Source: Candidatus Uhrbacteria bacterium CG_4_10_14_3_um_filter_41_21
GTDB taxonomy: Bacteria > Patescibacteriota > Patescibacteriia > UBA9934
DNA length: 60,029 nt
NCBI GenBank assembly: GCA_002782865.1
Contig: PFJC01000022.1
Span: 1 to 60,029 of the forward strand
Direction of reading: 5' to 3'
Below, piece by piece: positions 3,908 to 60,002 of this stretch. The position numbers were made by a program, and so were the translations under genes. Every line of letters begins with the position of its first letter. Within the stretch, counting starts at the first letter, position 1. The notes below the pieces were generated by a model that ran no database searches, had not been told where the DNA came from, and saw nothing but the letters and a program-made list of their open reading frames with translations.

Positions 3908-3966
3908 ATAAACCCATTCTGCTCGATTGGGGCGCAAAAAGCAAAAATCCCCATTTCTGGGGATCT
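3905..3966 (-). repeat. 62-nt repeat, copy 1 (terminator hairpin + leader + ATG of the MazG gene)
   Basis: 58/62 identical to 4893-4954 by manual alignment. A partial third copy (hairpin only) lies near 5553-5581. Confidence 0.85.
3936..3964 (-). terminator. Intrinsic terminator (part of the 62-nt repeat)
   Basis: Reverse strand has an ATCCCCA-GAAA-TGGGGAT hairpin followed by TTTTTGCTTTTT. Confidence 0.75.
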
Positions 3967-3987
3967 ATATAAAAACATCGCCTGGCA

Positions 3988-4016
3988 TTGACATTCTGCT
4001 GATTTTGACTTATATA
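3988..4016 (+). promoter_or_regulatory. Sigma70-type promoter of GC-rich cassette 1
   Basis: TTGACA (3988-3993), 17-nt spacer, TATATA (4011-4016). Confidence 0.6.
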
Positions 4017-4049
4017 TTAGGTACACACCCAGCTAGGAGTCACAGAGCA

Positions 4050-4349
4050 ATGACCATCTTCCCCGTCCTTCTCGGCCTCTTCGTGGCCGCCCTAGTGCTC
4101 GGCACCGTCGTCTGCTTCGTCAAGTCCGTCCTCGGCGATGGAGATCAGTGGACGTTCGCCGGCTTCCTCGGCACCGCCGCCACTCTCCACATCACCGTCT
4201 TCGCGATGGTCGGGTTCGCCCAGCGCTTCCCGGACCACCAGTGGACGTGGATCACGCTCGCGCTCATCGTGACGGCCTTCGACGTCGCCGTCGCCATCGC
4301 TGGCAACAACCACCGGCGCCAGCTCGTGCCCGCCATCGCCCAGCGCTGA
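4050..4349 (+). CDS. GC-rich cassette 1: small 3-TM membrane protein (99 aa), unknown function
   Basis: An AGGAG lies 10 nt upstream of the ATG at 4050. A sampled line is about 65% GC. Three hydrophobic segments (IFPVLLGLFVAALVLGTVVCF, FAGFLGTAATLHITVFAMVGF, WITLALIVTAFDVAVAIAG). Overlapping antisense and out-of-frame ORFs are treated as shadows. Confidence 0.6.
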   Translation: MTIFPVLLGLFVAALVLGTVVCFVKSVLGDGDQWTFAGFLGTAATLHITVFAMVGFAQRFPDHQWTWITLALIVTAFDVAVAIAGNNHRRQLVPAIAQR

Positions 4350-4370
4350 GCCTCGACTCAGCTCCCCTTC

Positions 4371-4404
4371 GACCCCAGCCTCTCGGCCGGGGTCGTCGTT
4401 TTTT
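4371..4404 (+). terminator. GC-rich intrinsic terminator of cassette 1
   Basis: GACCCCAGCC-TCTC-GGCCGGGGTC hairpin followed by GTCGTTTTTT. Confidence 0.75.
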
Positions 4405-4407
4405 ATA

Positions 4408-4436
4408 AAAGAAAAATCCCGCTTTCGCGGGATTCT
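4408..4436 (-). terminator. Intrinsic terminator after the HIT gene
   Basis: Reverse strand has an AATCCCGC-GAAA-GCGGGATT hairpin followed by TTTTC. Confidence 0.75.
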
Positions 4437-4439
4437 TAT

Positions 4440-4895
4440 TTATACTTCTTTAATTTTCTCCGCTACCAGCGCCAGCTCACTATCATCGGCTCGATCTGCA
4501 TCATGCGAGCTAATGTAGCCAGGATACTCTTTGTAAAAATCATTAATAACAGAAGATCGCTTTTGCCAATCACCAACTGTTCCGTGCAGTGGGAAAAGTT
4601 TTAAATGTAAGTGGTCAACCCCAAATCCTTCAGCCACCAAGCCAGTGCGTCCAACATCTTCAAAGGCTATATCAATCTTTTTCGCCACTTCTTTGGCTGC
4701 TAAAACTAAACCAGTAATTACATTTTCAGGAGCATCGAATAGATAACTGCCATGGTGCTCTTTTGGAATCAGAACCGTTACCCCTTTTGTATTTGGAAAA
4801 ATACTCAAAAATGCTAAATGATTTTCATCTTCCCAAACTTTATGGCCTGGAGAACTCCCATTTACGATTTGGCAAAAAATACAGTTATCATTCAT
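4440..4895 (-). CDS. HIT-family (histidine triad) nucleotide hydrolase/transferase
   Basis: Contains CIFCQIV near the N-terminus and VDHLHLKLFP (HxHxHxx triad). Start set at the ATG at 4895 (MNDNCIF). Confidence 0.85.
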   Translation of the reverse strand: MNDNCIFCQIVNGSSPGHKVWEDENHLAFLSIFPNTKGVTVLIPKEHHGSYLFDAPENVITGLVLAAKEVAKKIDIAFEDVGRTGLVAEGFGVDHLHLKLFPLHGTVGDWQKRSSVINDFYKEYPGYISSHDADRADDSELALVAEKIKEV

Positions 4896-4954: not shown

Positions 4955-4969
4955 TTATGTAAAAATATT

Positions 4970-12096: not shown

Positions 12097-12125
12097 TTGA
12101 CAAAAACCGCAATTTTTTGTAGGAT
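12097..12125 (+). promoter_or_regulatory. Sigma70-type promoter of GC-rich cassette 2
   Basis: TTGACA (12097-12102), 17-nt spacer, TAGGAT (12120-12125). Confidence 0.55.
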
Positions 12126-12219
12126 TCTGTGTCGTTCATTTAAGAAAGCTTGGAGGTTGTTGTCGGTGCTGGACCGTGTCCAACATCTAACATTCAACTT
12201 CCAAAGCCCTGGAGACACC

Positions 12220-13338
12220 ATGTTCTGCTTCATTCTCTTCGCTATCGCCATGTTCTTCAGTTCGGCAAGCGCCAAGACCCACGCGGTCGTGGTTGGCGTG
12301 GACGCGCCGGCGCTCGAAGGAATATCGGCCGTGGCGAGCGCTGCCTACAACTGCGTGCGCGTATCGGAGATCATCAACAACTCGGACAGCGAGGCCCGCG
12401 CCCTCTGCGCGGAAAATGCCAGTCGCAATCAAGTGATGGCCGCTTTTGCCGACGCTGCCAGCCAGGCAAGCGACGGCGAAACTGTATTTTTCGCCTGGTT
12501 CGGTCACGGGTTCGTGATCAAGGAATCGGGAGAAAAGGGCTTTGTGCCTGTGGACTGGGATCCCGAAGATGACACCAGCGCCATTTGGCTGGAGCGGGAC
12601 ATCAAGTCGGTCATGCGCCTGCGACCGACCGTGACGTTCAGGATTATCCTGGACGCCAATCACCGCGCCAACTATCGATGGGAAAAGGCCAGTAAAGAAC
12701 TCGGCTATGTGACCCTGCATGGGCCAACGGCTGAGGACTTCGCCGACCTGGACAATGTGCTGGTGATCTCGGCCGGTAGCGGCGACAATTTCCTGAATCC
12801 GAGCGACTCAAAGTTCGGAACCGCTGTCGTCGCGGCACTCGGTGCGCGCGAAAACGGCGTGCTCACGATCGCCGTTTTCGCGACCAAGCTCGCGAGCGTC
12901 TACCGAGAGGCAGGTGGCAACCCGACAGGTGTAGAAAGCTGGATGGAAAACTCCTCGGCTCTCTTCACCTGGCCGGCCGAGTTTGCGCCCCCGCCCAAGC
13001 AGGCACTCAAGTGGCGCCGGCCGGTAATGTATGCCGGCGCTGGCATGGCCTTGGCTGGATTCGGCGTGTCTAGCGTTGAGTGGCTTCGAACGAAGTCGCT
13101 CCAGCAGCGCCTGATCGACTACGACTACGAGTCAATCAACGGGGAGGACGGCTACTACGACCTCCTCGACCGGCGCGACAACGCCTTTCGGGGGAGTCAA
13201 ATCGGGGCAATCGCAGGCGCAGTCGGCGCAGTCGCCGGTGGAGCCGCCTTCGCGCTGGAATGGCGCGCCGACCATTTCACTAGCCTCGCGCCTATGGCTG
13301 GCGAAGCCAACGGCCTTCTCTTCCTTGGACGGTTCTGA
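12220..13338 (+). CDS. GC-rich cassette 2: secreted, membrane-anchored caspase-like (peptidase C14-like) protein, catalytic Cys apparently replaced
   Basis: A GGAG lies 5 nt before the ATG at 12220. Signal peptide MFCFILFAIAMFFSSASA. Contains HAVVVGVD and the His motif VFFAWFGHGF, but ILDANH where caspase-fold enzymes have D-x-C-H. Gly/Ala-rich C-terminal TM segments. Strong GC3. Confidence 0.55.
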   Translation: MFCFILFAIAMFFSSASAKTHAVVVGVDAPALEGISAVASAAYNCVRVSEIINNSDSEARALCAENASRNQVMAAFADAASQASDGETVFFAWFGHGFVIKESGEKGFVPVDWDPEDDTSAIWLERDIKSVMRLRPTVTFRIILDANHRANYRWEKASKELGYVTLHGPTAEDFADLDNVLVISAGSGDNFLNPSDSKFGTAVVAALGARENGVLTIAVFATKLASVYREAGGNPTGVESWMENSSALFTWPAEFAPPPKQALKWRRPVMYAGAGMALAGFGVSSVEWLRTKSLQQRLIDYDYESINGEDGYYDLLDRRDNAFRGSQIGAIAGAVGAVAGGAAFALEWRADHFTSLAPMAGEANGLLFLGRF

Positions 13339-13355
13339 ACCGTCTGCGTGCCAAA

Positions 13356-13391
13356 GCGGCGCAACCTCTCGGTTGCGCCGCATCTTTTTTT
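13356..13391 (+). terminator. GC-rich intrinsic terminator of cassette 2
   Basis: GCGGCGCAACC-TCTC-GGTTGCGCCGC hairpin followed by ATCTTTTTTT. Confidence 0.85.
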
Positions 13392-13420
13392 CAGAATATG
13401 TCTCGTAAAACATTTAATTC

Positions 13421-15793
13421 TTATAATGGAATCTCCTGCTCCTCGCCCTCCAGCGGCTCGGGAACTTCTTCTTCAACCAATCCAGCCTGTAATCTTTCCA
13501 GTCTTTGAACTACAAGCGTATTTTCAGAATCACTTTCTAAAATCAATTTAATTTGTTCAATCGCTGCCTCTATATCTCCGTCCTGTTCATAAACAGCTGC
13601 CAAATACCATCTGGCATTGGCAAAATTTGGCGCCAGCTCAATTGCATTTTCAAACTCCTGTCTTGCTAAATCAGTTTTTCCCTGTTGCAAATATAAAATT
13701 CCAAGTTGCAGACTCACGCCAACATCGTATGGACTAGCAATGCTTACCGCCTCCATTCTTGAAATCGCTTCTGCTAAATTACCTTGCCTTTCATAAGCCA
13801 ACGCCAAATAATAATGCGCCGGGGTATAATCTGATTTTAAACTAATTGCCTTGCTTAAAGATGTAACTGCAATCTGAAGCGAAAGCTCATATTCTTTTTG
13901 AGTATTAGCATTAAACTCTTCGTCTTCACTAGCCATTAAAACACTTAGTTGATCTGCCCGGGCGATGTAAGCCCGCGCTAGGGCAACTTGATATTTTGGA
14001 TTTGTAGGCGCCAGCTCGACTGCTTTTTCATAAGATGAGATTGAAAACTGATCTGCTCCTGAAATAAGTGGCGAAAATTCTCGGTAAATATCTCCAAGCA
14101 ACGCCCAATTTACAACATTGGCCGGTGACAGACTGACCGCTCTGGCCGCTTCATCAATGCTGGCTGAAATAAAGGCCGAAACATATTCTGGGTCTGAATT
14201 CTCATCTTTCAGTAACTCTGCTGTTTTCATTAAATATGCGTTGGCAAGATTGCGGGCGTAAACATCGCTGAGGCGATTTAATTTTGCAGCTGATTCAAGA
14301 TCATACAAAACTATGTCCAAATCTTCACCTGATTGATCTGCCGCAACTGCCTTGGCAAATGTAATCTCGGCGGCATACCTAGACGCTGTTACAAATATTA
14401 GCGTGAGCATGCAGATATTTACCAGCACAAACGCAAAAACTGTAATAAGCCCGGCCTTTGGAGAATTTCCAAAAATAAATGTTTTCGCTTTTGTTCCAAT
14501 TTGACTGACCAATATTGCCGATAGTAACCAAAACATGAAAGACAAAGTGATGTTTGATGAATAAATAAATAGACTAAGTGTAATCATTGACCAGCCGGCA
14601 AATGTTACAAAAGTCATTTTCCATTCATCGTGAGCCTGGTCTTTAATGAGCATCGAAAGTGAAGACAAGGCAAGAATTACAAGAAAAATCACAAATAAAC
14701 CGGCGCCAACAATTCCCGTTGTAGTGAGCATTGTCATTATCTGACTACCGGAACGATCAAAACGGATATCCCAAAGCTCGGTATAATTGATGCTTTCTAA
14801 ACTATGCTTGGCATAATCCATCATAAATGTCCCGGGACCTGATCCAAAAAGAAATGACGAATCCTGAAGCGCATCACCGGCAATTCTCCAGCTGGCAGAA
14901 TATGAAGGGGCCACTTCTCCAGGATAAATTCCAGAAATAAAAGTTGGTAAAAACAAAAATAGTAAAGAAATAACGAACAAAGTCATTGGCAGAACAAATT
15001 TTGAAGTATGAGGAAATTCATTGGCTTTTGTTAGGGCAAAGACAAGTAAAACTGAAATACCAAGCATCAGTACTACCCAAACAACCCAATAATCAATTGC
15101 AACTGATATAACTATAGCTGATAAAATCGACAGAACTATTGCCACTTTAACCAATACCCCAAACCAACCATGTTTAAACATCTGTGATTCATTACCGTCT
15201 TTTGTTACTAAAAACAAACCGCAACCGATAACTGACATGACAGAAAGATAGATTGCCAATGCACTTGGTGCCCCAACTAAATTTGTAGATATAATATTCA
15301 AACCAACAATCTCAAGCATTGCGAGCAATCCAACAAGACCTGAGGAAAGCAGACTGACTGACCAGACAATTCTTTGTGCTTTAGTTTCGCCAAGCAAATT
15401 TGAGCTAACTAAAAAGAACAAAAAGAATGCTAGTGCTGTGACAAAACTGGAATATTCCTGACCGGACTGACCAATCCAGCTAGTATAAGGTGAGAGTGAG
15501 GTGAACGACGAAATCATTACGGCAATTAAAAATAACCCGCCTACAAAATAGGTTGGACTTTTTTTAATCTCTACTGTTTTTCGGGCAACCATAGATCCCA
15601 ACCAAGCAATCACAGCCAGCGATACACAAAAAAGCAAAGTTGTTTGCTTATTGATTTCCAAACCATCTATTGTCCAAGGAAAATAAACTAATGGAAAAAG
15701 TCCAATGGTAATATATAAAAATACACGCGCAATTATTTCGTAAACACGCGCTACGTCGCCAAAGCGACGTTTATTTGGTGTGCAGTCTGTCAT
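13421..15793 (-). CDS. Polytopic membrane protein, O-antigen-ligase/Wzy_C-like N-terminal region + C-terminal TPR repeats
   Basis: 790 aa with about 12 hydrophobic segments. These are followed by repeated A..Y..A......P....A...LA..Y 34-residue TPR-like units. Confidence 0.65.
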   Translation of the reverse strand: MTDCTPNKRRFGDVARVYEIIARVFLYITIGLFPLVYFPWTIDGLEINKQTTLLFCVSLAVIAWLGSMVARKTVEIKKSPTYFVGGLFLIAVMISSFTSLSPYTSWIGQSGQEYSSFVTALAFFLFFLVSSNLLGETKAQRIVWSVSLLSSGLVGLLAMLEIVGLNIISTNLVGAPSALAIYLSVMSVIGCGLFLVTKDGNESQMFKHGWFGVLVKVAIVLSILSAIVISVAIDYWVVWVVLMLGISVLLVFALTKANEFPHTSKFVLPMTLFVISLLFLFLPTFISGIYPGEVAPSYSASWRIAGDALQDSSFLFGSGPGTFMMDYAKHSLESINYTELWDIRFDRSGSQIMTMLTTTGIVGAGLFVIFLVILALSSLSMLIKDQAHDEWKMTFVTFAGWSMITLSLFIYSSNITLSFMFWLLSAILVSQIGTKAKTFIFGNSPKAGLITVFAFVLVNICMLTLIFVTASRYAAEITFAKAVAADQSGEDLDIVLYDLESAAKLNRLSDVYARNLANAYLMKTAELLKDENSDPEYVSAFISASIDEAARAVSLSPANVVNWALLGDIYREFSPLISGADQFSISSYEKAVELAPTNPKYQVALARAYIARADQLSVLMASEDEEFNANTQKEYELSLQIAVTSLSKAISLKSDYTPAHYYLALAYERQGNLAEAISRMEAVSIASPYDVGVSLQLGILYLQQGKTDLARQEFENAIELAPNFANARWYLAAVYEQDGDIEAAIEQIKLILESDSENTLVVQRLERLQAGLVEEEVPEPLEGEEQEIPL

Positions 15794-15800
15794 AACAGCT

Positions 15801-18800: not shown

Positions 18801-19664
18801 GCTAGCACCAGAAGTTAATGTTCCGTTGACATGTAACATTCCGCTTGATGTTCCAACAGCAGAAGGCCAGGCTGACAAGCCACTTACATCTATATCACCG
18901 CCTGAAAAAACAAAAGCGTCATCAGTTGAGTAGGACAGACTGCCTGTGTCTGCATCGCTCGCCTTAAATACAATCGAGCCGCTGGCACTTGAACCATCGC
19001 CTATGTAAACCGTATTTGTAGATTCATCTACTCCAAACGGTGAGGCGTTAAACACAGTTCCACCAATTGCAAAATCATCTGTTGCAGATGTTAAATATGT
19101 GACTGCACCACTGTCAGTAAAGAACTGCAATTCTGTCGAGTCCAAACCGTCCAGATAATCGGCATTAATCGCATACGGAGCTGATGTTAGTTGTTTTCGA
19201 GGGCTTAATTCTTCACCGCCTATATAAACTTGTAAGTAAATAGATGAATCAGTTGTAAACTCGGTTTCATCAATTGCAGCATATGGCGAGGCGAGGCTAG
19301 TATCTCCAAGTGATTCTGAAAAAAGTCCATCTGTTAATGTTATCGTTCTGGCAGCTGTCATTGCCGGAGTGTCACCGTCACAACTCGTACTTGAGTTTGA
19401 CCACAAACATGAGCCACCGGAGGAAGCTGAATACAACTCAAACTTCATCGACAATGAAGAATCTGAAACTGGAACGCCGGCGAGGTTTAAAATTCTACCT
19501 TGATATGTAATGATGATTGGTACAGAGGCTGCGTAAGCATTCATGAGCCTCGGCATGCTAAAGCCAAAGATTGAGCAAATCACAAACAACACCACAAAAA
19601 GCGTAGTGATCCTTCTTAAAAGTGTTGTCGGAGTTTGTTTATTCATACCTCCACGTCTGCGCAA
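15801..19664 (-). CDS. Giant secreted surface protein (1287 aa), tail-fibre-like, with duplicated DYAE(L/M)FP modules and an acidic tail
   Basis: N-terminal TM/signal segment. Contains SAPYAINADYLDGLDSTEL (a motif common in phage tail-fibre-like proteins) and two GSDYAELFP / SYDFAEMFP modules resembling peptidase-G2/intramolecular-chaperone cleavage domains. The last ~110 aa are E/V/D-rich. Confidence 0.7.
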   Translation of the reverse strand: MRRRGGMNKQTPTTLLRRITTLFVVLFVICSIFGFSMPRLMNAYAASVPIIITYQGRILNLAGVPVSDSSLSMKFELYSASSGGSCLWSNSSTSCDGDTPAMTAARTITLTDGLFSESLGDTSLASPYAAIDETEFTTDSSIYLQVYIGGEELSPRKQLTSAPYAINADYLDGLDSTELQFFTDSGAVTYLTSATDDFAIGGTVFNASPFGVDESTNTVYIGDGSSASGSIVFKASDADTGSLSYSTDDAFVFSGGDIDVSGLSAWPSAVGTSSGMLHVNGTLTSGASGGTGVYGFLGLNVDVFNDSTETVGYDQDLIAITGEAQNSTSGELSNLYGLYGTATSQSTSVNAIGIKAVGVYGSAKNSGAGVTVPAAYGMLAQVIPDDGTMTAAYGISAQILSSSGAITTSYAGDFINTFEGTTRYGVRSGASGGTTNYSGYFYGAQVFVDNSIAPSTALLVDGPGDLYVYDQLEIAGNNQTTDAVIKLDTGNLITGAGLMIRRANSGTDFTGLQGLVNFTLDDTGSNGNLLYLNHDGTGKSLYIDQVGDGTALDVHGTSTTDYIAAFYNDGNADTNMGISIQACVDVSPTGACNYLIFKDGDGDSLGVVEGNGGGVVFASPGSDYAELFPGVYSDFDEGDILALDATGNIILATDDADMIGAFSTKANTLGNWVDGWESAGIYVPVALLGQVQVNINDSSGAIAVGDYITLSSTPGVGRRATGVGHVIGQALEAHTSGTGTIQVLVNPNWIAADILEEDGTATSVNSNLKLTSSGTATASTTGQNSNEFILRGSGWNGATVSDIDMSIITKVSDSADYGLSVSNDDGTEVAYISSEGNFAIAGRLYPSDRGTLQTDKYIYYDGSSGAGGDFMRTNASGWGAGSYDFAEMFPSTQTLSAGEVVIFASDDESVQRSTSKTYDDKIAGVVSTQPGFLAGENLPGHVPIALAGRVPTYVSGENGEIKVGDPLTTSAKPGYAMKATAAGPIVGYAMESFSGNTGAITVFIRPSYYDGGDIADAPGVDNSASGFTSVSKLDLSGSVNLNGDSIASIGSLVGIGSNWKISEDGQFSTKGQFVHLVKSYQGEDVETYAALSRNVTIQLTGTVELKQGSASIKFEDIDPKFNDIISNTQPYKVFLTADAPTNTLYAVNRSTSGFQIKENGGSSMATVDWMVIAYHKDFEPEEVEEDVPEDVDVEVEEVIDDIDVNEEEIVDESTDAEEVAGPISDIVEEVVTEAETVIEEEIIEEPAIVEEAVETPALVESADPELTTDTPVEEVVSTAEPIDIVVE

Positions 19665-19700
19665 AAATTTGCGTACACGCGGAAGTACGATTCCGCGATA

Positions 19701-26476: not shown

Positions 26477-27292
26477 TTACTTTGTTGGTAATTCGCCCCA
26501 AAGTCTTTCAAATATTGTTCTGTGAAAATCAGCTAACTCTTTTGATTCAATAATAACCGCCATTTTTTCTTTCCAAGAAGCAATCAATATTTTATTGTTA
26601 TAAATATTTACTTCAGGTGTAAAGGAATCACTTTGAGGTAAAAACCTGGTATTTCTCATTTCGTTGCTATCTTTTTGAGCTCGCTCGTAAGATGATTTAT
26701 TGCGCGGCAGAATTGCTCTAATAAATACTCCGGCGTCCGATCGACGCTGATAGTACTTAGGAAAGAAATTCGGAAGTGCCTCGTGCATTGTTTCTACGTT
26801 TGCATAGGCGAGAATTGGATCTTTTGATGTCAGCGTATCTTCATACGCTTCGCGCATACCTTTCTCGTCTTCATAAAATTGAACCTTTGGCCGAGTACTA
26901 TCCTTATATTGTTTTGAGATAAGCTCTGGCAAAAGTTTTTCAACTTCAGCTTTCTTCTTTGTTAATCTTTCCGTAGTGTTTTCGATTTCTCGGTCAATAT
27001 AACTTAAGAGTCGTTTTGGCTCTAGCGCTTCAAAATATGTTTGATTACCTCTTATATTTTTGCTTATCAAGCCTTTTTTCATTAAAGAGCTAAGAATATC
27101 GTACATAGTTGTACGGTTAAGGTCTGCCTTTTTAGCAATTTCTCCGGCTCTTGCCTCACCAAGCTCGAGCAAACCAAGATAGGTTGCAATTTCTTTTTCT
27201 GTAAAATTCAGATCTCGAAGTGTTGTTTCAAGCATATTTTGTGGAAATAATAACGACACTTTATTTATATAATATTCGCTAAATTTTGTCAA
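26477..27292 (-). CDS. TrmB-family transcriptional regulator
   Basis: Winged HTH (YLGLLELGEARAGEIAKKADLNRTTMYDILSSLMKKGLI) plus a TrmB-like C-terminal domain. The real start may be the Met at about 27235. Confidence 0.75.
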   Translation of the reverse strand: MTKFSEYYINKVSLLFPQNMLETTLRDLNFTEKEIATYLGLLELGEARAGEIAKKADLNRTTMYDILSSLMKKGLISKNIRGNQTYFEALEPKRLLSYIDREIENTTERLTKKKAEVEKLLPELISKQYKDSTRPKVQFYEDEKGMREAYEDTLTSKDPILAYANVETMHEALPNFFPKYYQRRSDAGVFIRAILPRNKSSYERAQKDSNEMRNTRFLPQSDSFTPEVNIYNNKILIASWKEKMAVIIESKELADFHRTIFERLWGELPTK

Positions 27293-27383
27293 TACTAAAT
27301 TTCTATTTATAGTCTACTCTCGACAAAAGTAGAATTTATTGATATTTTGATCGGTCGAAATCAATCGACAAGTGGAGGCAGTT

Positions 27384-27794
27384 ATGAACGTTACATGTGA
27401 GGTCTCTCTCCTGAATGTGGCGCCCTGTACGAAATTCAGACAAGAATACAACGCATGTGTGTTCCGTGTCCTCAAGGTGATGGCCAAGGCGTGGTTTTAT
27501 GCCACGCCGGGTGTCCGCGCCAAAAGCGCGGATGTCCAGGTCAAGGAAGGTCAGAACTTCCGGGCCGTCATCAGCGTTCAGTGTTGCAGGCAGAACGACG
27601 GCATCGTCGACGAGCCGGTGGTGTTTACCGGAAAAACTGCCGATGAAGTTCATCGGCAGATGGATCTTCTCACCGAGGTGGAAGGCACCCCGGTAGAGCA
27701 TGGCCTGAAGATCGATCCCTTCGAGCTTCACCGCGAAGCTCGAAGTCGAGTCTACTCGACCTGGATCGGCGTGGTTTTTGTCCACGCCATCTAG
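27384..27794 (+). CDS. GC-rich cassette 3a: small soluble Cys-containing protein (136 aa), unknown function
   Basis: A GGAGG lies 5 nt upstream of the ATG at 27384. GC3-enriched in this frame. A possible TCGACA-N17-TATTTT promoter lies at 27321-27349. Confidence 0.5.
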   Translation: MNVTCEVSLLNVAPCTKFRQEYNACVFRVLKVMAKAWFYATPGVRAKSADVQVKEGQNFRAVISVQCCRQNDGIVDEPVVFTGKTADEVHRQMDLLTEVEGTPVEHGLKIDPFELHREARSRVYSTWIGVVFVHAI

Positions 27795-28002
27795 AGCCCC
27801 ACTCGCGGCGTGCGCCCTTGTGTGCACGCCGACCGATCAATGTGTTTTTCAAAAGAAGAACTTATTGACTGGGTCTAGCTCATTTTTCCGCGGCCTCCAA
27901 AAAAAAGTGCCGCTCAGGCGCTTTAGCAGATAAAATTAGATAGGCCCGACTTTTTAAGCAGTTTTTACTGGTGACATGCCTTTTCAAAAAAAGAGGTAAA
28001 AG

Positions 28003-28344
28003 ATGGAATTACGGGAATTCAACGCCTTGCAAGAGGCGCTGCGAGAAGTAGAAATACTTGTCGCAAGGTGGGCCTGGCACAGAATCAGGCCAAAAATTCC
28101 GTGGACAGAAAGTGGCCGTTATGAAAACGGCGAAGAAGCAGCCGGCGTCTTCTGGGATTTCCAGAAAGATGTTCGAGCAGTAAGCGCGGACGTCCCGCTA
28201 TGGGCGTTTCATACCAGCAACGGCCCGGGTAGGCGGCCGATCAGCGAGCTCGAACACACGCTCGCTGTCACCATTCTTCAGGGCAATGACGAAAATGACG
28301 AAAAGGAAGTAATGAAAATCCTCGATGAGCGTTTTCCGCTCTGA
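28003..28344 (+). CDS. GC-rich cassette 3b: small Trp-rich soluble protein (113 aa), unknown function
   Basis: A GAGG lies 6 nt upstream of the ATG. Intermediate GC. Followed by hairpins and the shared bidirectional terminator. Confidence 0.5.
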   Translation: MELREFNALQEALREVEILVARWAWHRIRPKIPWTESGRYENGEEAAGVFWDFQKDVRAVSADVPLWAFHTSNGPGRRPISELEHTLAVTILQGNDENDEKEVMKILDERFPL

Positions 28345-28388
28345 ACTTCATATCCCCGACTGCACATGCGGCCGGGGTTTACTGCAGA

Positions 28389-28418
28389 CAAAAAAGAGCC
28401 CCGAAAGGGGTCTTTTTT
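28389..28418. terminator. Bidirectional terminator (cassette 3b / rpsT)
   Basis: AAAAAAGAG-CCCC-GAAA-GGGG-TCTTTTTT. Confidence 0.8.
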
Positions 28419-28420
28419 GC

Positions 28421-30399: not shown

Positions 30400-30428
30400 T
30401 TGACAAATACGCCTATTTATGATATATT
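30400..30428 (+). promoter_or_regulatory. Sigma70-type promoter of GC-rich cassette 4
   Basis: TTGACA (30400-30405), 17-nt spacer, TATATT (30423-30428). Confidence 0.6.
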
Positions 30429-30467
30429 TTCTTGTCGACAGATTAACCATTCGACATAGGAGTCGAA

Positions 30468-31121
30468 ATGTTCGAGCACGCTTCCCCTGCTTTCAATCTT
30501 GTTCGCAGGCACTTCGTTGAGCTCGACCAATTCGGACTCAACGGCATCACTGTCACCTTTGTGTTCACGACCATCTTCGGCCTGCTAGGGTCTTGGGGTC
30601 TGTACAAACAGATCCAGATGGTCAAAAAGCGCGGCGGACAATCCGTGTCTGTGATCTGGAGCATCAGCTTCATGTTCATGTTCGCAAGCTACTACCTGTA
30701 CGGACTCAGCGCCGGCAAACTGGCCATTTTGATGCAGTCATTTCTACGCGTCCCATTCTACCTGATTTTGCTTCCGTTGCTCTACCGCGCAAACGCGGGA
30801 TTCAGCAAAAAGGAATGGACGCTCGTGATCGCCTTGACCACATCGCTCATCGTGTCCTATTGGGACATCGGCAAAGTGTTCCTGGGTCTATCGTGGCTTG
30901 GCGCGATCATCGCTGCCGATCAGCCCTACAAGATCTGGAAAAACCGAACCCGTGGTAGCGTCTCGATAGAACTCATGGCCTCCTTCGAGGCGAGCATCAT
31001 CTTCTGGCTTGCATATGCCTTCGTGACACACGACGGCTATATCAAAGCCTGGGCAGTGGTATACTTCACCGTCTACACGACGACAATTATCTTCTACTAC
31101 CTGCCGAGACACCGCACCTAG
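30468..31121 (+). CDS. GC-rich cassette 4: 7-TM protein with two PQ-loop/SWEET-like repeats (tentative)
   Basis: A GGAG lies 5 nt before the ATG. About seven hydrophobic helices. Two loop motifs follow TM1 and TM5 (YKQIQMVKKRGGQSVSVIW and QPYKIWKNRTRGSVSIELM), like PQ-loop repeats. Confidence 0.5.
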   Translation: MFEHASPAFNLVRRHFVELDQFGLNGITVTFVFTTIFGLLGSWGLYKQIQMVKKRGGQSVSVIWSISFMFMFASYYLYGLSAGKLAILMQSFLRVPFYLILLPLLYRANAGFSKKEWTLVIALTTSLIVSYWDIGKVFLGLSWLGAIIAADQPYKIWKNRTRGSVSIELMASFEASIIFWLAYAFVTHDGYIKAWAVVYFTVYTTTIIFYYLPRHRT

Positions 31122-31136
31122 CCCGCTCGCGAGAAA

Positions 31137-31173
31137 GCGCCCGCCACTTCTCGCTGGCGGGCGCATCTTTTTA
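31137..31173 (+). terminator. GC-rich intrinsic terminator of cassette 4
   Basis: GCGCCCGCCA-CTTCTCGC-TGGCGGGCGC hairpin followed by ATCTTTTT. It is the only hairpin between the polA stop and rnhB. Confidence 0.8.
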
Positions 31174-31184
31174 TTAAAAAAATC

Positions 31185-34511: not shown

Positions 34512-34552
34512 TATAAAAACAACCCGCCGTCGCTCTCGGAGCAATGGCGGGT
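34512..34552 (-). terminator. GC-rich terminator of cassette 5
   Basis: Reverse strand has ACCCGCC..GGCGGGT followed by TGTTTTTA. Confidence 0.6.
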
Positions 34553-34600
34553 GGGGGTGCACCCACGTCAGCAGGAGAACTCACGCAGGTGAGCTATATC

Positions 34601-34861
34601 CTAGCTGTCACGGGTGTGCGAGCTAGACTTCTGTCGCCATTCCTCGTACCTGATCTGCTTGATGGCCTTGTACAATATCAGGCCGAAGGGGGCCACAATG
34701 CTACCGAAGGTCAGCAGGGCGAGGAACCAGTCTGGCGATCCCTGCTGGTACCAATCGACTCCGAAGACCAGGAGCATCAGAACGCCCATTAGCCAAATGA
34801 CGAGACACGCAAGCGCGTCGCCCTGGCCGAAGATGTGAGGCTCGGGAAGTCGAGGCGCCAT
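34601..34861 (-). CDS. GC-rich cassette 5, gene B: small 2-TM membrane protein (86 aa)
   Basis: The ATG shares one nucleotide with the upstream stop (TAATG). A GAGGTG lies 5 nt upstream. TM segments LACLVIWLMGVLMLLVFGV and FLALLTFGSIVAPFGLILY. Confidence 0.55.
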   Translation of the reverse strand: MAPRLPEPHIFGQGDALACLVIWLMGVLMLLVFGVDWYQQGSPDWFLALLTFGSIVAPFGLILYKAIKQIRYEEWRQKSSSHTRDS

Positions 34862-35199
34862 TACTTCACCTCTTGCTGAACCGTCGCCACCTTCTTGTGC
34901 AGGTGAGCAAAGATCTTGTAGAAGAGCCAGCAGATCAGGGCTATCGGGACGGCGAGCAGGAGGGTAGCCATCAGCTCGAAGACACTCGTGCACAGCAGCG
35001 GCGACATCGCGAAGAAGATGAGGCAAAAGACGAAGAGGGCCTTGTTGAAGACCATCAGCGACATGACCTTCTCGGACTGCTCCGGGTATTCACACTGCAG
35101 GTAGTAGCGCATCACGTTCCAGTTGATCAGGTTGTAGATTGTCCCGATGAACAGAGCGGTGGTGCCGATGTAGAGCGTGACGGGCAAGGGCAGGTTCAT
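34861..35199 (-). CDS. GC-rich cassette 5, gene A: small 3-TM membrane protein (112 aa)
   Basis: A GGAGG lies 5 nt upstream of the ATG at 35199 (MNLPLPV). TM segments include LYIGTTALFIGTIY, ALFVFCLIFFAMSPLL and LLLAVPIALICWLFY. Confidence 0.55.
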   Translation of the reverse strand: MNLPLPVTLYIGTTALFIGTIYNLINWNVMRYYLQCEYPEQSEKVMSLMVFNKALFVFCLIFFAMSPLLCTSVFELMATLLLAVPIALICWLFYKIFAHLHKKVATVQQEVK

Positions 35200-35264
35200 G
35201 GATTCCTCCAGAGGTCGGCTGATCCCAGCCGTGGGGTTGCCGATCCGAGTGGAAACGACGCTCA

Positions 35265-35293
35265 AACATAACAGAAATAGGATAATCCGTCAA
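35265..35293 (-). promoter_or_regulatory. Sigma70-type promoter of cassette 5
   Basis: Reverse strand has TTGACG, a 17-nt spacer and TATGTT. Confidence 0.55.
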
Positions 35294-35300
35294 TCGAGCT

Positions 35301-36117: not shown

Positions 36118-36146
36118 TTGACAAAAGGCTGTTTTTGTGATACATT
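36118..36146 (+). promoter_or_regulatory. Sigma70-type promoter of GC-rich cassette 6
   Basis: TTGACA, 17-nt spacer, TACATT. Confidence 0.55.
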
Positions 36147-36201
36147 ACTCGGTCGAGTGGTAGTATTCCACTGCCCTCACAACACGGCCAAGGAGGCCAA
36201 C

Positions 36202-36786
36202 ATGCGCAACCTGATCCAGATCGCTCTCGCCACCCTGCTCGCCGCCTGCGCCAACCAGCAGAGTGGCCCCTCGAGCCTGGGCGAGCCCGCCCACACGGGC
36301 GGCACGAAGATCGCTGGCCCTGGCGACAGCGCGGTCGAGTTCATCACCTGGCACTTCCCCCAGGACAGCACCACCAGCAACATCACCTTCACCATGCTGG
36401 TGCCCGAGTGCGACTCCATCGGTTCGTGCCGTTGGATCTCGGACATTTACGGCTACACCCAGCACGACGTCCGGACGGCCCCGGTGCGGACGGTGGTGCA
36501 GGACGCCATCGACATCTGCTGGCTGACCGACGAGAACGACGAGGTGGTGTACAACACCAACTCGCTACCCGACGGCGACGGCAACGTGTCCTTCCGCATC
36601 CTCAAGTCCACCGGCTCGGTGACCCTCGTCTGCGACATCAGCAGAGATGCCGAGGCCGTGACGATCGGTACCAATCTCCAAGATCTCACCAACTACAAGT
36701 ACGTCGGCGAAGACTTCGAGTGGTACGGCACCTACCTCAACCTGAACTCCTGGACCAAGCCCGCCTCGAGGGTCACGATCCGGTAG
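36202..36786 (+). CDS. GC-rich cassette 6: lipoprotein (194 aa), unknown function
   Basis: An AAGGAGG lies 5 nt upstream of the ATG at 36202. Signal peptide with lipobox MRNLIQIALATLLAAC. Strong GC3. The other long ORFs here are shadow frames. Confidence 0.6.
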   Translation: MRNLIQIALATLLAACANQQSGPSSLGEPAHTGGTKIAGPGDSAVEFITWHFPQDSTTSNITFTMLVPECDSIGSCRWISDIYGYTQHDVRTAPVRTVVQDAIDICWLTDENDEVVYNTNSLPDGDGNVSFRILKSTGSVTLVCDISRDAEAVTIGTNLQDLTNYKYVGEDFEWYGTYLNLNSWTKPASRVTIR

Positions 36787-36812
36787 ATCCGGTAGTCACG
36801 CACCCCCTCGAC

Positions 36813-36849
36813 GACGCATCCGTCGCCGTTCGGGTGCGTCATTTTTTTT
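36813..36849 (+). terminator. GC-rich intrinsic terminator of cassette 6
   Basis: GACGCATCCG..CGGGTGCGTC hairpin followed by ATTTTTTTT. Confidence 0.85.
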
Positions 36850-36867
36850 AATTAAACTTTTACCAAC

Positions 36868-50417: not shown

Positions 50418-50449
50418 AACCATTATCTGACGATCGTCATTTAATGGTT
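50418..50449. repeat. 32-nt nested palindrome, copy 1
   Basis: AACCATTATCTGACGATCGTCATTTAATGGTT has outer arms AACCATTA/TAATGGTT and inner TGACGATCGTCA. It is about 27/32 identical to 52601-52631. Confidence 0.8.
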
Positions 50450-50530
50450 AGAGTTGAGGCCCAAGATACTGCCTCAGGCTTATTCGTATTCGATCGGTCT
50501 CCCCCGTAACTGGGGGGGGTTAAGAGGGCG

Positions 50531-50568
50531 TAAAAACAAAACAGCGCACCCCGGTGGAACGCGCTGTT
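50531..50568 (-). terminator. Intrinsic terminator of GC-rich cassette 7
   Basis: Reverse strand has AACAGCGC..GCGCTGTT followed by TTGTTTTTA, about 170 nt after the stop codon. Confidence 0.7.
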
Positions 50569-50740
50569 CCTAGGTGCGCTGTACGCGCTTAGGGCGTTGG
50601 CGTCGTGCCCCGCCAGTCGTTTTCTGGCTCATCCGACGCCCCAGCGGGAATCGGGAGCTGGGGTGACAATTCGTCTATGTAGACGATGGACTTACGGACT
50701 TGATCCTCGAAGCCCGCAGGAATGAATATCGAGCTACGAG

Positions 50741-50992
50741 TCATATCGCGTAGACCATCAGCCCGTCATCTTCCTCGGCACAGAAGCCGGGAATGGCGCC
50801 GATTAGGCACGGACGCACTGACCTATTCCCCGCATACAGTTCATTGATGCCGCCCTCGCAGAACATCCTGTCCTGCGACCAGACCTCGGTCTTTACACCA
50901 GAACAGACAGACATCATCTCTGCCCGTTGTTCCTGCATGTAACGACACCCTGCCAGCAGGCCGAGCACGAGCATCATCAGAAAACGTTTCAT
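50741..50992 (-). CDS. GC-rich cassette 7: small Cys-rich lipoprotein (83 aa)
   Basis: A GAGGG lies 5 nt upstream of the ATG. Lipobox signal peptide MKRFLMMLVLGLLAGC. Five further Cys residues. Confidence 0.55.
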   Translation of the reverse strand: MKRFLMMLVLGLLAGCRYMQEQRAEMMSVCSGVKTEVWSQDRMFCEGGINELYAGNRSVRPCLIGAIPGFCAEEDDGLMVYAI

Positions 50993-51044
50993 TTTTTCCC
51001 TCGATCTGGCAAACCGGCCAGTGCGGATGTCGTTGTGACAACAA

Positions 51045-51073
51045 TTTATATAATTATTTTACTGTTTTGTCAA
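51045..51073 (-). promoter_or_regulatory. Sigma70-type promoter of cassette 7
   Basis: Reverse strand has TTGACA, a 17-nt spacer and TATAAA. Confidence 0.55.
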
Positions 51074-57335: not shown

Positions 57336-57557
57336 GGACAAGTGTGTTGAAAAGTGTGTGTACCGGTAGTCCATAAGTACACAAAAATTATTCGCGTCTA
57401 TTTCATTAACACTTTAATCACTTCAAATAGCCCGGCAAGTACACAAGAGCTCGGCGATTAAACTGGCTAACATAAAAGAAAAAAGAAACTTATTCAATCA
57501 ATCCACACCCTTATTATTACTACTGTATTTATATATTAATTTACTAATAAAAAAGAC
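57336..57557. promoter_or_regulatory. dnaA-dnaN intergenic region, AT-rich (possible unwinding element)
   Basis: GGACAAGTGT lies at 57336-57345 (third copy of this 10-mer). A very AT-rich tract spans 57505-57555. No perfect DnaA box is present. Confidence 0.35.
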
Positions 57558-58697
57558 ATGAAACTTTCCTGTACAAAAGAGAACCTTAATCAGGGTCTTG
57601 CCATAACAAGTCACGTTAGTGCAAGAAATGTTAATTTACCTATTTTGAATAACGTTCTTCTTCGTGCTGACGCAGGGGGGTTAAAATTGATTTCTACTAA
57701 TTTAGAAATTGCTATTACTTGCACCGTTCGAGGCAAACTCGAACAGCAAGGAGAATATACAGTTCCATCAAAACTCTTTTACGATTTTGTGAACTTACTT
57801 CCAAACGAAAGAGTTGATATCGATCTTCACGATGATGGACTTTCGGTAAAGTGCGGTTCGGCTAAAACCAAAATAAAGGGGATATCTCCTTCAGAGTTTC
57901 CGCTAGTTCCACCGGTTGTAGGAAAACTAAAATACATTGTTCCGGTTCATTTGTTGCGCGGAGCCCTGTCGCGAGTTTTATTTGCAACAGCTACAAATGA
58001 GTCCAGACCAGAACTTACCGGAGTGATTTTCTCGTTTAACGGTGGTGGTGAAGACAAGGGATTGATTTTGGCAGCAACAGACAGCTACCGACTAGCAGAG
58101 GTGTATGAAAAAATTTCAGTCGAAGGAACTGAACAGAAAGTGATCATCCCACAAAGAACACTCACAGAGCTTAGTCGTATGTTTGGGGTGTTTAAGGACG
58201 ATGTTGAGGCTCCAAAGGATGTTATAATCGAGCTAGCGGACAATCAGGTGGTGTTTAGGTACGGTTCGGTAGAGTTGATATCGCGAACAATCGAAGGAAA
58301 CTATCCGGATTATCGTCAGATTATTCCAAACACCTCAAAGACAGAGATCATTATTGAAAGGACGGTTCTTTCTCAAGCTATCAAAAGCGCCAGCCTGTTC
58401 TCGAAGCTAGGCTTATTCGATATTGATGTTAAAATTAATCCAACGGATAAAACGATCGAGCTTTCTGCTGCCGATTCTGGTCGGGGCGAGAATAAGATAA
58501 CTCTCGAAGCCGAGGTCTCTGGAGATGAAAACGAAATAATCATGAATTATCGGTATTTGCTTGATGGTCTAAACGCAATGCCAACGGAAAAAGTTAAAAT
58601 AAAAATTATCGATGCCGCCAGTCCGTGCGTGATTGTACCGGCAGAGGAAATGCCAAATGAAAAATACCAGTATATTGTGATGCCAATTCGACAGTAG
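57558..58697 (+). CDS. dnaN: DNA polymerase III beta sliding clamp
   Basis: 379 aa with three-domain clamp organisation, downstream of dnaA. Confidence 0.9.
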   Translation: MKLSCTKENLNQGLAITSHVSARNVNLPILNNVLLRADAGGLKLISTNLEIAITCTVRGKLEQQGEYTVPSKLFYDFVNLLPNERVDIDLHDDGLSVKCGSAKTKIKGISPSEFPLVPPVVGKLKYIVPVHLLRGALSRVLFATATNESRPELTGVIFSFNGGGEDKGLILAATDSYRLAEVYEKISVEGTEQKVIIPQRTLTELSRMFGVFKDDVEAPKDVIIELADNQVVFRYGSVELISRTIEGNYPDYRQIIPNTSKTEIIIERTVLSQAIKSASLFSKLGLFDIDVKINPTDKTIELSAADSGRGENKITLEAEVSGDENEIIMNYRYLLDGLNAMPTEKVKIKIIDAASPCVIVPAEEMPNEKYQYIVMPIRQ

Positions 58698-58723
58698 GGG
58701 CGAGGCGTCGCCTCGCCCATTTG
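58697..58723 (+). terminator. GC-rich hairpin after dnaN
   Basis: GGGCGAGGC-GTC-GCCTCGCCC hairpin followed by ATTTG. A second hairpin AAGGGCGGGG-TTT-CCCCGCCCTT follows. Confidence 0.5.
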
Positions 58724-58788
58724 AACATATGGTAAGGGCGGGGTTTCCCCGCCCTTTGATGTAGGGCGTATGGCATATCGATTTGACG

Positions 58789-58844
58789 CGCCCAGGTTAC
58801 CGCCGAGGCCCCGCCTAATTTTTGGGTCGGCAGTAACCTGGGCG
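58789..58844. repeat. GC-rich palindromic element, copy B
   Basis: CGCCCAGGTTACCGCCGA .. TCGGCAGTAACCTGGGCG (17/18 complementary). The arms are homologous to copy A at 50315-50375. Confidence 0.8.
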
Positions 58845-58913
58845 TGATTGATGCACAGAACCCGCCCCAGCATAGCCCGGGGCGGGTTTAGATTTGCGTA
58901 GATGACGAAGAGT

Positions 58914-59906
58914 CTACGTGCTCTTGCGGCCGGCAGCCCTTTCCTTGCACTTGCGGCAGGGCTTCTGGGTCGCGGCGCACTTCTTGCACCGCCCGGATGG
59001 GATCTTCAGCCCGGCCGGAGCCTTCGGTCGGGGCTCGCGGAACTTCTTGCCGACGCACCCGCGCTTGCGCTCACCGACGCCGTTCGCGATGAGCACGAAG
59101 GACATCTGGGCGCGGACGGGGTCGTAGGGCCTGCCGGCACCGTGTCCGACGACCTTCGTGGTGGGCATAGGGAGGATGTTGTCGAGGCGACCACTGCCGA
59201 TCGGCTGGCCGAGGAGCCGGCTCATCTCCTCGGCACCACTGCCGGGGAGAAGTTCGATCGTGCCGTCCTGCAGGAGCCGGACGGCACACGGCGCGCAGAT
59301 GAGCACCAGCGAGCGCTTGTTCACTCGCACGGCGCGCATTTCCTCGATGACCGCTTCCCCATTCTGGGAACTGCACAGGGAGGGACAGACCCGGTGCACC
59401 GTGCACTCGGTCAGGATGGTGCCGTGGTTCGGCTTCTTGCGAGAGAATTCCTCGGGCAGCACCCGCCCGCGCTGGACGATGCGGTCGATGATCGTCGTGG
59501 GCGTCGGCATCATCTGGACCGGCAGAAAGGCCGGCTCGAGCCCGCCCTCAACCAGGATCATGCCCGGGTTTTCGCTTCGGGGGTTGATGCCGGGCATCTT
59601 CTTTTCAGCGCAGGCATCGCAGACCCGCGCCTTTGGGTTGGGGCTGAAAAGCCCGTCTTTGATCCTCCCGCCGGAGAGGTACTCAACCTTCGCGCCCAGC
59701 GCGAAGGGGTTGATTCGACCGCCCAGGTGGTCAGGAACGAGCGCCTTGCAGAATGCGCAAGGCTCGGCACTCTTGCTCCAGGCGCGCCCGGTCTTGCACT
59801 CCCGGCCGTGCTTGATCCGCTCGCCCTCGTGGAGGGCGTTTTGGCAAGGCGAGCCGCTCTCGCCATTGCAGATACAGTAATCGGTTGTCTTCTCGGTGTT
59901 TCCCAC
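58914..59906 (-). CDS. GC-rich cassette 8: Cys-rich (multi-CxxC) basic protein, 330 aa, unknown function
   Basis: GTG start with a GAGGTG 4 nt upstream. The reverse frame has pronounced G/C third positions. Contains CICN..C, CAFC, CDAC, CAPC and a CKKC..CRKC tail. The equally long forward ORF 58902-59984 is an Ala/Arg/Leu/Gly-rich shadow. Confidence 0.6.
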   Translation of the reverse strand: MGNTEKTTDYCICNGESGSPCQNALHEGERIKHGRECKTGRAWSKSAEPCAFCKALVPDHLGGRINPFALGAKVEYLSGGRIKDGLFSPNPKARVCDACAEKKMPGINPRSENPGMILVEGGLEPAFLPVQMMPTPTTIIDRIVQRGRVLPEEFSRKKPNHGTILTECTVHRVCPSLCSSQNGEAVIEEMRAVRVNKRSLVLICAPCAVRLLQDGTIELLPGSGAEEMSRLLGQPIGSGRLDNILPMPTTKVVGHGAGRPYDPVRAQMSFVLIANGVGERKRGCVGKKFREPRPKAPAGLKIPSGRCKKCAATQKPCRKCKERAAGRKST

Positions 59907-59973
59907 GGGGCACCTCGGATATACTATTTATTGTCCGTATTTGCTCTCAAGCCGATGGGAGCGGGACGAGCCA

Positions 59974-60002
59974 AATTATTATAAAATCAGCATTTTGTCA
60001 AG
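59974..60002 (-). promoter_or_regulatory. Sigma70-type promoter of cassette 8
   Basis: Reverse strand has TTGACA, a 17-nt spacer and ATAATT. Confidence 0.5.

Follow-up and report, generated by a model that had tools for sequence, protein, structure and literature searches.

Bacteroidia ribosomes ignore Shine-Dalgarno (SD) sequences, and rpsU alone keeps a strong SD there, for autoregulation or specialised translation (PMC9976891; PMC7797042; PMC13000453). Such SD-less lineages with reserved SDs, together with phage morons and accessory islets, appear to be the closest kin of the genes described here, which lie on contig PFJC01000022.1 of Candidatus Uhrbacteria bacterium CG_4_10_14_3_um_filter_41_21 (60,029 nt, the whole of which is hereafter the window). 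An earlier note on this DNA had picked out nine GC-rich blocks holding ten genes nearly all preceded by SDs, here called cassettes and named by the first coordinate of their coding sequence (CDS), and had stated that no described system matched them; our literature searches likewise found no prior description of such a system. The cassettes make up about one gene in seven (~14%), and the combination known from Bacteroidia, strong SDs confined to a defined set of genes in a genome otherwise generally lacking them, was found in the window, with relatives agreeing. We put at about even the chances that they form a resident, clade-wide class of autonomous, SD-dependent and fast-evolving accessory genes, rich in G + C at third codon positions (GC3) and mostly encoding envelope proteins.

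Composition of the cassettes

The window as a whole has a GC content of 42.4%, whilst its GC-rich segments (3995-4451, 12186-13412, 27397-28342, 30400-31179, 34494-35308, 36122-36850, 50443-51043 and 58670-59973) reach 51-64%. GC3 of the ten cassette genes, after correction of their boundaries, was 0.56-0.92 compared to 0.35 +/- 0.05 in 34 host genes (host maximum 0.47), so that the blocks are indeed as sharply GC-rich as had been described. Codon preference was reversed for nearly every amino acid, with C and G frequencies at third positions of 0.47 and 0.31 in the cassettes and 0.17 and 0.17 in host genes. GC at first and second codon positions (GC1, GC2) and the usage of GARP and FYMINK amino acids were host-like, genes with GC3 of 0.85-0.98 having GC1 of 0.46-0.65, GARP of 0.14-0.35 and FYMINK of 0.20-0.36. 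The highly expressed host genes rpsF, rpsO, efp and tig were without the cassette codon bias.

The GC-rich zone corresponds to the predicted transcript, from promoter to T-run: GC content was 20-42% in promoter zones, 36-63% in leaders, 53-66% in CDSs and 64-74% in the hairpins of the 3' untranslated regions (3'UTRs), falling back to 30-43% directly after the T-run, and no GC3 gradient or spill-over into flanking genes was found. Avoidance of RNase or restriction motifs was considered as a cause and rejected, only depletion of TA and GGAG/CCTC standing out, as was selection on mRNA structure as a general cause, 27384 being the only strong outlier (z = -8.5; cassette mean z = -2.4 vs host -1.3). 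With the sequence upstream of the window included, the dichotomy in SDs and GC3 covered about 70 kb of the genome.

Translation signals, promoters and terminators

Predicted pairing with the anti-SD sequence separated the two kinds of gene, all ten cassette starts lying at -6.4 to -11.4 kcal/mol against a median of +0.1 for 43 host starts (Mann-Whitney p = 5e-7), with an SD-to-start spacing of 5-7 nt in nine cassettes and 10 nt in the remaining one. Because GC-rich DNA could hold GGAG by chance, we scored 194 other ATG/GTG sites inside the GC-rich transcripts, 5.2% of which reached -6.4 kcal/mol (P~1e-13 for ten out of ten). Leaders of the SD-less host genes were very short, 6-11 nt separating the -10 element from the ATG, and the folding energy around starts (-30 to +30) was -1 to -4 kcal/mol for host genes and -7 to -17 kcal/mol for cassettes. 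Three claims of the earlier note are thus borne out, namely that cassette starts carry GGAG(G)/GAGG, that native genes lack an SD and that the latter resemble leaderless genes in having the -10 element close to the ATG.

SD-like motifs were also avoided within host CDSs, where GGAG occurred 136 times against 203.5 expected from synonymous shuffles (z = -6.7), AGGA gave z = -5.1 and GGAGG z = -3.7; the reverse complements CTCC and CCTC were not depleted in these CDSs, i.e. the avoidance is strand-specific. Cassette CDSs were likewise depleted in GGAG (z = -3.3). Avoidance of internal SD motifs by host CDSs implies a working anti-SD, and with it that the SD is a meaningful native signal.

An own promoter and hairpin terminator are predicted for eight or nine units, each pair flanking one or two genes. 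The TTGAC(A/G)-17-TAnnnT promoter proposed earlier was recovered, with five exact and three near matches to TTGACA-N17-TAnnnT among cassettes, but is not specific to them, since it also precedes hppA, tig and other host genes. Similarly, a GC hairpin terminator had been proposed for each block: seven units do end in a long GC hairpin with a T-run, which a terminator scanner ranked as the strongest in the window, whilst the hairpins of 50741 and 58914 are not followed by a clean T-run. A TCGAC/TCGTT motif recurs 6-10 nt past the -10 element, at the predicted transcription start, of many cassette and host promoters (e.g. 27320, 30435, 36153 and 48306), is present in the relative L019 too, and may serve this clade as an initiator-like element.

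The individual units

The predicted units and their CDSs are as follows.

Unit 1, 3988..4403, + strand: promoter TTGACA...TATATT, ~25-nt leader with AGGAG
Unit 1 CDS, 4050-4349, + strand: 99 aa, 3 transmembrane (TM) segments, GC3 0.92; hairpin 4378-4393 with T-run
Unit 2, 12097..13391, + strand: promoter 12097-12125 (TTGACA-17-TAGGAT), ~88-nt leader, GGAG 5 nt before the ATG
Unit 2 CDS, 12220-13338, + strand: 372 aa, signal peptide, C-terminal TM segment, GC3 0.74; terminator 13356-13381 (11 bp, 9 G-C) with T-run
Unit 3, 27286..27850, + strand: promoter 27286-27313 (TTGTCA-16-TATAGT), conserved leader with GGAGG
Unit 3 CDS, 27384-27794, + strand: 136 aa, GC3 0.68; conserved terminator core 27805-27850
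Unit 4, 27851..28420, + strand: conserved spacer and leader, GAGG 6 nt before the ATG; promoter position not pinned down
Unit 4 CDS, 28003-28344, + strand: 113 aa, GC3 0.56; terminator 28398-28411 with T-run
Unit 5, 30400..31174, + strand: promoter 30400-30428 (TTGACA-17-TATATT with TG), leader with AGGAG; in the polA/rnhB slot
Unit 5 CDS, 30468-31121, + strand: 217 aa, PQ-loop/SemiSWEET-like protein with 7 TM segments, GC3 0.73; terminator 31137-31164 with T-run
Unit 6 (two genes), 34512..35293, - strand: promoter 35293-35265 (TTGACG-17-TATGTT), leader with GGAGG; hairpin and T-run near 34515-34545
Unit 6 first CDS, 34861-35199, - strand: 112 aa, TM segment, GC3 0.88
Unit 6 second CDS, coupled, 34601-34864, - strand: 86-87 aa, 2 TM segments, GC3 0.77, own GAGG
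Unit 7, 36118..36850, + strand: promoter 36118-36146 (TTGACA-17-TACATT with TG), leader with AGGAGG
Unit 7 CDS, 36202-36786, + strand: 194-aa lipoprotein, lipobox LAAC, GC3 0.92; terminator 36813-36840 with T-run
Unit 8, 50530..51073, - strand: TTGACA promoter near 51073-51043, leader with GAGGG; GC hairpin 50541-50582
Unit 8 CDS, 50741-50992, - strand: 83-aa lipoprotein, lipobox LAGC, GC3 0.68
Unit 9, 58850..60001, - strand: promoter 60001-59973 (TTGACA-17-TAATTT), ~60-nt leader, GAGG 6 nt before the GTG; hairpin at about 58856-58890
Unit 9 CDS, 58914-59906, - strand: 330 aa, basic, 18 Cys, GC3 0.85

The 10 kb of sequence upstream of the window contain an eleventh unit, an out-of-sample case that fits the same plan exactly (TTGACA-17-TGAAAT, 30-nt leader with GGAGGG at 5 nt from the ATG, GC3 0.71, GC hairpin). 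The GC-rich 3' part of unit 8, left unassigned in the earlier note, is occupied by an open reading frame (ORF) of 51 aa at 50589-50744 (- strand), probably a second gene that is translationally coupled, its ATG overlapping the upstream stop (ATGA). Seven of the ten products are of envelope type, i.e. multi-TM, lipobox or signal-peptide proteins, in line with the envelope bias already remarked upon. No paralogy or common protein family was found among cassettes, and no known RNA families were found in their leaders or bodies, even at E<=0.1.

The N-terminus of the 372-aa protein of unit 2 gave a weak caspase-like match, the only match of any cassette to a defence system, and membership of the cassettes in such systems was rejected as nothing beyond it was found; the predicted structure of this ORFan had a predicted local distance difference test score (pLDDT) of 34. 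The 330-aa product of unit 9 falls in a small uncharacterised protein family with many Cys and basic residues (members P0125-P0134) with the conserved N-terminal motif C..G.C.N..H...C..GR.W...PC..C..VP.HLG.R.NP. No member had a Pfam domain, and the AlphaFold model of the 330-aa protein (pLDDT 73) matched no fold in the PDB.

Unit 3 is unusually structured, its transcript (window 27320-27860) having a minimum free energy of -236.8 (z = -9.2 vs dinucleotide shuffles; CDS z = -8.5 vs synonymous shuffles) and repeated GGCGTGG...CCACGCC hairpins, whilst its L019 counterpart has mild structure only (z = -2.5). An 11-nt pairing is predicted between the leader TTGATCGGTCG and conserved post-terminator sequence CGACCGATCAA, by which the mRNA would be looped, and an RNA function of this region, besides or in place of a protein-coding one, is possible.

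Public gene calls include an antisense 73-aa ORF at 4092-4313 for unit 1, in some cases a + strand shadow ORF of 360 aa (58902-59984) for unit 9, and a mis-framed 92-aa ORF in L019 (15226-15548). Gene callers trained on the AT-rich bulk of such genomes thus mis-strand or mis-frame several units, and the class is partly missing or garbled in protein databases.

Comparison with relatives

Relatives' sequences are labelled L001, L019, L020, L021, L024 and L030, and two sequences reaching past the window ends L007 and L039; distant relatives at about 50% GC (L022-L037) added little resolution. PolA homologues place the organism among Uhrbacteria-like Patescibacteria, with the nearest non-self relative being 67% identical. 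Gene order in relatives is conserved (pnp-NYN-rpsO...Xer...polA-rnhB-holA-rpsT-(slot)-TrmB-RmuC), and their housekeeping genes are also SD-less.

The slot between rpsT and TrmB was the most informative. Here 27384 and 28003 have an orthologous pair at the same position in L019, a relative with 67% PolA identity, the 28003 orthologue (L019 14713-15108) having 31% identity (E=3e-15) whilst no similarity was detectable between the 27384 protein and its counterpart there. DNA identity is 30% and 41% for the two CDSs and 63-72% for the flanking housekeeping CDSs, compared to 68% for the promoter and SD leader and 89% for the terminator core, which includes a compensatory stem change. The terminator/spacer between the two genes (27795-27960), for which Rfam gave no match, is more conserved with L019 than are the neighbouring housekeeping CDSs. 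Since this shell is conserved in L019, the SD leader is vertically inherited and not a donor fingerprint. Four-fold degenerate sites of flanking orthologues were 27-46% identical between window and L019, with 25-29% expected by chance, and are therefore near saturation; nevertheless GC3 of the first cassette in the slot was 0.68 in the window and 0.70 in L019 (a 40% GC genome). High GC3 in both lineages despite near-saturation means that it is maintained or continually renewed and is not a relic.

Elsewhere the correspondence was looser. Unit 36202 has ~45 nt of promoter and signal-peptide start in common with L020 (6418-6560), but its mature part cannot be aligned with that of L020 6534 and the neighbourhoods differ. 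Between polA and rnhB, L019 and L001 have an empty slot, the genes abutting or overlapping there, and in L021 the slot holds a 50-aa GC-rich, SD-led ORF unrelated to unit 5. The search for empty sites in relatives that the earlier note had proposed therefore gave a divided answer, with the polA/rnhB slot empty in two relatives, so that some turnover apparently occurs, and the rpsT/TrmB slot orthologously occupied. GC3-rich, SD-led ORFans with hairpin terminators were also found in relatives of 46-56% background GC, with no homology between those of different relatives at E<1e-3. The units located in relatives are:

L001 958-1437
L020 6534-7157
L021 8642-9589 (GC3 0.98)
L021 12595-12747
L024 145-510 (GC3 0.93)
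L030 6597-7184 (GC3 0.96)

Genomic setting and search for a donor

Each block had been described as standing singly between conserved housekeeping genes, and Pfam confirmed the neighbours (efp, ychF, rpsT, polA, rnhB, pgeF, hppA, tig, dnaN). TrmB denotes here the transcriptional-regulator family of that name. The contig has been assembled independently, in versions of 57-87 kb, from dozens of samples in JGI, ENA, Logan and NCBI (exact-protein look-ups), and 12 independent assemblies that we fetched were 99.95-100% identical to the window. It is also a contig of Candidatus Uhrbacteria bacterium CG_4_9_14_0_2_um_filter_41_50 and of sibling metagenome-assembled genomes from Crystal Geyser groundwater. 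These span the junctions of 4050, 12220, 50741 and 58914, all of which were intact, with no presence/absence differences and no coding single-nucleotide polymorphisms (SNPs), which answers the doubt about chimerism raised earlier.

Recent acquisition of the cassettes from a GC-rich partner or host, as the earlier note suggested, was not borne out, given the absence of a donor, the sharing of two units with L019 and of the promoter and signal peptide of a third with L020, and the host-like amino-acid usage; the note's reading as recent cargo or morons, taken together, is only partly supported. The donor search that it called for yielded no close homologues for the three proteins searched. The 372-aa protein matched only itself among 5.8 billion proteins (word-indexed search), the PQ-loop protein had one homologue (50% identity) from a sample also holding a clade relative, and the 330-aa protein had ten distant relatives (<=39% identity) among 1.84 billion representatives (exhaustive search). 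Clusters at >=90% identity were species-only for all ten cassette proteins. No cassette gave tblastn hits to INPHARED phages or PLSDB plasmids, and none had PHROG families or IMG/VR relatives.

No terminal inverted repeats (TIRs), target-site duplications (TSDs) or attC-like repeats occurred consistently at cassette borders, and hairpin sequences differed between units. A transposase or integrase had been said to accompany none of the cassettes, and no link to them was found for the two that lie nearby: a Xer-type tyrosine recombinase (38058-39035), which is not GC-rich and has a conserved orthologue in all relatives, and a 138-aa transposase of the Y1 (HUH) type, encoded on the - strand about 30-450 nt past the window end, outside unit 9 and at a GC content like that of the host. 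Mobilisation as an insertion sequence (IS), miniature inverted-repeat transposable element (MITE) or IS200-IS605-type element was rejected given the lack of consistent TIRs or TSDs and the composition and position of the Y1 transposase. An integron cassette array was likewise rejected, since the borders have no common imperfect inverted repeats, the sole tyrosine recombinase is the Xer orthologue and the units are dispersed with promoters of their own, and so was a prophage setting, given the housekeeping neighbours and the lack of PHROG families and of phage or IMG/VR relatives.

Just beyond the window, at L007 12493-13894 (about window 60050-61450), the Y1 transposase is accompanied by a bAvd gene and by an Asn-rich ORF NANNGHPDNEWSPDNLW in a stretch of 54% GC, a combination suggestive of the beginning of a diversity-generating retroelement (DGR); nearly all independent assemblies break at this putative DGR start.

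As to orientation, nine of ten units (those of the window plus L039 19484-19822) are antiparallel to the flanking host genes (binomial P about 0.011), with only unit 36202 co-directional with a neighbour; in relatives the orientation is mixed. An antiparallel unit would not stop read-through from a host operon, and such read-through would yield antisense RNA to the unit.

Two other regions of the window are of note. A surface operon (13421-24023) encodes lineage-specific proteins of 790, 1287, 856, 284 and 305 aa with TPR, weak bMG3/PEGA and WxL-interacting-like matches. Its genes are AT-rich and SD-less though probably encoding surface proteins, and the cassette class is therefore not simply one of 'envelope genes'. 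An AT-rich defence-like cluster (window 1-3940 plus about 12 kb upstream, L039 10001-15754; 30-35% GC, GC3 0.26-0.30) encodes an N6/N4 methyltransferase, a ResIII helicase, DUF2779, a NucS/YhcG-like nuclease, EVE and a MazG-like protein. The classic 'foreign-looking' island here thus deviates toward AT, opposite to the cassettes.

Interpretation and alternative explanations

If the cassettes are a resident class, core genes would be AT-rich and translated from leaderless mRNAs or very short unstructured leaders without an SD, whilst cassette genes would be mono- or bicistronic, with an ordinary sigma-70-type promoter of the clade, a 25-90-nt leader, an optimally spaced SD, GC3-saturated codons and a strong GC hairpin terminator. 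SD pairing would be a native signal reserved for this class; structured GC-rich 5' regions would be unable to use the AU-rich SD-less route and would depend on SD pairing, so that GC-richness and SD dependence would be coupled. The regulatory shell (promoter, SD leader and terminator) would be inherited and constrained, whilst the coding parts, mostly for small membrane, lipo- and secreted proteins, would evolve or be replaced very fast and slots would occasionally be gained or lost. We infer that translation of the class may be separately controlled, that its products may function in the cell envelope or at the host interface, and that high GC3 may be kept up by selection on mRNA (structure, stability, initiation mode) and not by donor ancestry.

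Several points weigh against this interpretation. Three or four of the ten cassettes can be traced to relatives, and the remainder are species-specific ORFans which could be younger imports. The unalignable 27384 CDS fits replacement equally as well as divergence. It is motif avoidance alone that implies a functional anti-SD, and the promoters, transcription starts and translation of the units are all predicted. Ordinary translational selection is an unlikely cause of the high GC3 because ribosomal-protein genes and efp lack the bias, and the GC1 and GC2 values expected of a high-GC donor derive from general regressions and not from data computed here.

The main alternative, possible though we lean against it, is continuous horizontal turnover, in which a GC3-rich gene pool, of the clade or of an unsampled donor or mobile element, refills conserved shells or hot spots and GC-richness is always a fresh donor signature. 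The sharp compositional borders, the different ORFans in every genome and the nearby Y1 transposase, DGR and Xer recombinase would all fit, as would the polA/rnhB slot, empty in L019 and L001 and with unrelated genes in the window and L021, the unalignable 27384 CDS between conserved flanks, and 36202 and L020 6534 with their common promoter and signal peptide but differing mature regions and neighbours. Against such turnover, neither protein search gave a donor beyond clade-internal or very distant relatives, phage, plasmid and IMG/VR matches and TIR, TSD or att-like repeats were lacking, and the 12 assemblies had neither presence/absence polymorphism nor cassette CDS SNPs. Furthermore, amino-acid composition is host-like even at GC3 0.98, the SD is part of the conserved shell rather than of the variable cargo, and 28003 is a plain vertical orthologue. 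GC-biased gene conversion (gBGC), or a local mutational bias at recombination hot spots, driving GC3 up is improbable. It would account for enrichment mainly at synonymous sites with host-like amino-acid usage, for the fast evolution of the genes and for the GC enrichment of leaders and 3'UTRs, but diffuse conversion is unlikely to give such sharp block borders, which coincide with promoter and terminator and show no gradient in flanking genes. The shift from 0.35 to 0.92-0.98 is also far above the few-percent effects attributed to gBGC in bacteria, the clonal population shows no evidence of recombination, and the AT-rich surface-operon genes, equally lineage-specific, are unaffected.

That the blocks are an assembly or binning chimera, or GC-rich non-coding DNA with chance ORFs, is barely credible. 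Many shadow ORFs do arise in GC-rich DNA, strand choice differs between gene callers for at least two units, and 27384 is unusually structured; yet the junctions of the four covered units are identical in at least 12 independent assemblies (JGI, ENA, NCBI), whose agreement rules out an assembly chimera, codon periodicity is strong (GC3 >> GC1 > GC2), the products include lipoboxes, TM segments and a PQ-loop domain, and 28003 has a true orthologue and 58914 a 10-member protein family. A non-coding or chimeric origin can thus in effect be discarded for these genes as a class, 27384 being the one whose coding is still in doubt. Within the preferred reading of a resident class, a stronger form, which we regard as unlikely, has two expression systems side by side in a small genome, a leaderless, SD-less AT-rich core and a selectively maintained regulon of GC3-saturated, SD-dependent mRNAs for fast-evolving envelope or host-interface proteins, which would be translated only by ribosomes in a particular state or under a particular condition (e.g. 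host attachment); at the extreme, the units may be adapted to expression inside a partner cell that is GC-rich and uses SDs.

If the dichotomy is genome-wide, one reduced genome would contain two translation-initiation regimes and two codon dialects, with the SD a class label and not a general signal, and specialised translation in uncultivated members of the Candidate Phyla Radiation (CPR) would be directly testable with existing metatranscriptomes and metaproteomes. The units are in addition a candidate set of host-interaction and envelope genes, and they caution that composition-based calls of 'foreign DNA' may mislabel long-resident genes.

Comparison with known systems

Integron cassettes are similarly small units, mostly of one gene of unknown function, in series along a genome region, but they are promoterless, attC-ended and arrayed by intI/attI in one orientation, none of which applies here. 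Variable surface lipoprotein families of the mycoplasma type have a conserved promoter and signal peptide. The pair 36202 and L020 6534, with a common promoter/signal-peptide start and unalignable mature parts, resembles these, though there are no paralogues in the genome and no repeats or phase-variation tracts, and the pattern holds for only one of the ten units. Lawrence-Ochman amelioration of ORFan islets would also involve atypical composition, ORFan products and variable intergenic slots. This model predicts that GC3 decays first and that old inserts become host-like, whereas here GC3 is the most deviant codon position and persists, with no donors found.

The earlier note had likened the cassettes to phage morons. 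The likeness holds in so far as they are autonomous promoter-gene-terminator units of one or two genes between conserved genes, deviant in composition and apparently with some presence/absence variation, seen in one slot. Unlike morons they lie among chromosomal housekeeping genes without phage genes, are conserved at the same slot with constrained regulatory shells over deep divergence, have a synonymous bias with host-like amino-acid usage, and differ from host genes in translation initiation. With the SD-blind Bacteroidia they share an SD-less lineage that keeps strong SDs on a defined gene subset, which implies a specialised translation route. In Bacteroidia that subset is a single gene and the anti-SD is sequestered, whereas here it comprises ~14% of genes, all of them GC-rich and accessory, and the internal avoidance of GGAG in host CDSs argues for an accessible anti-SD.

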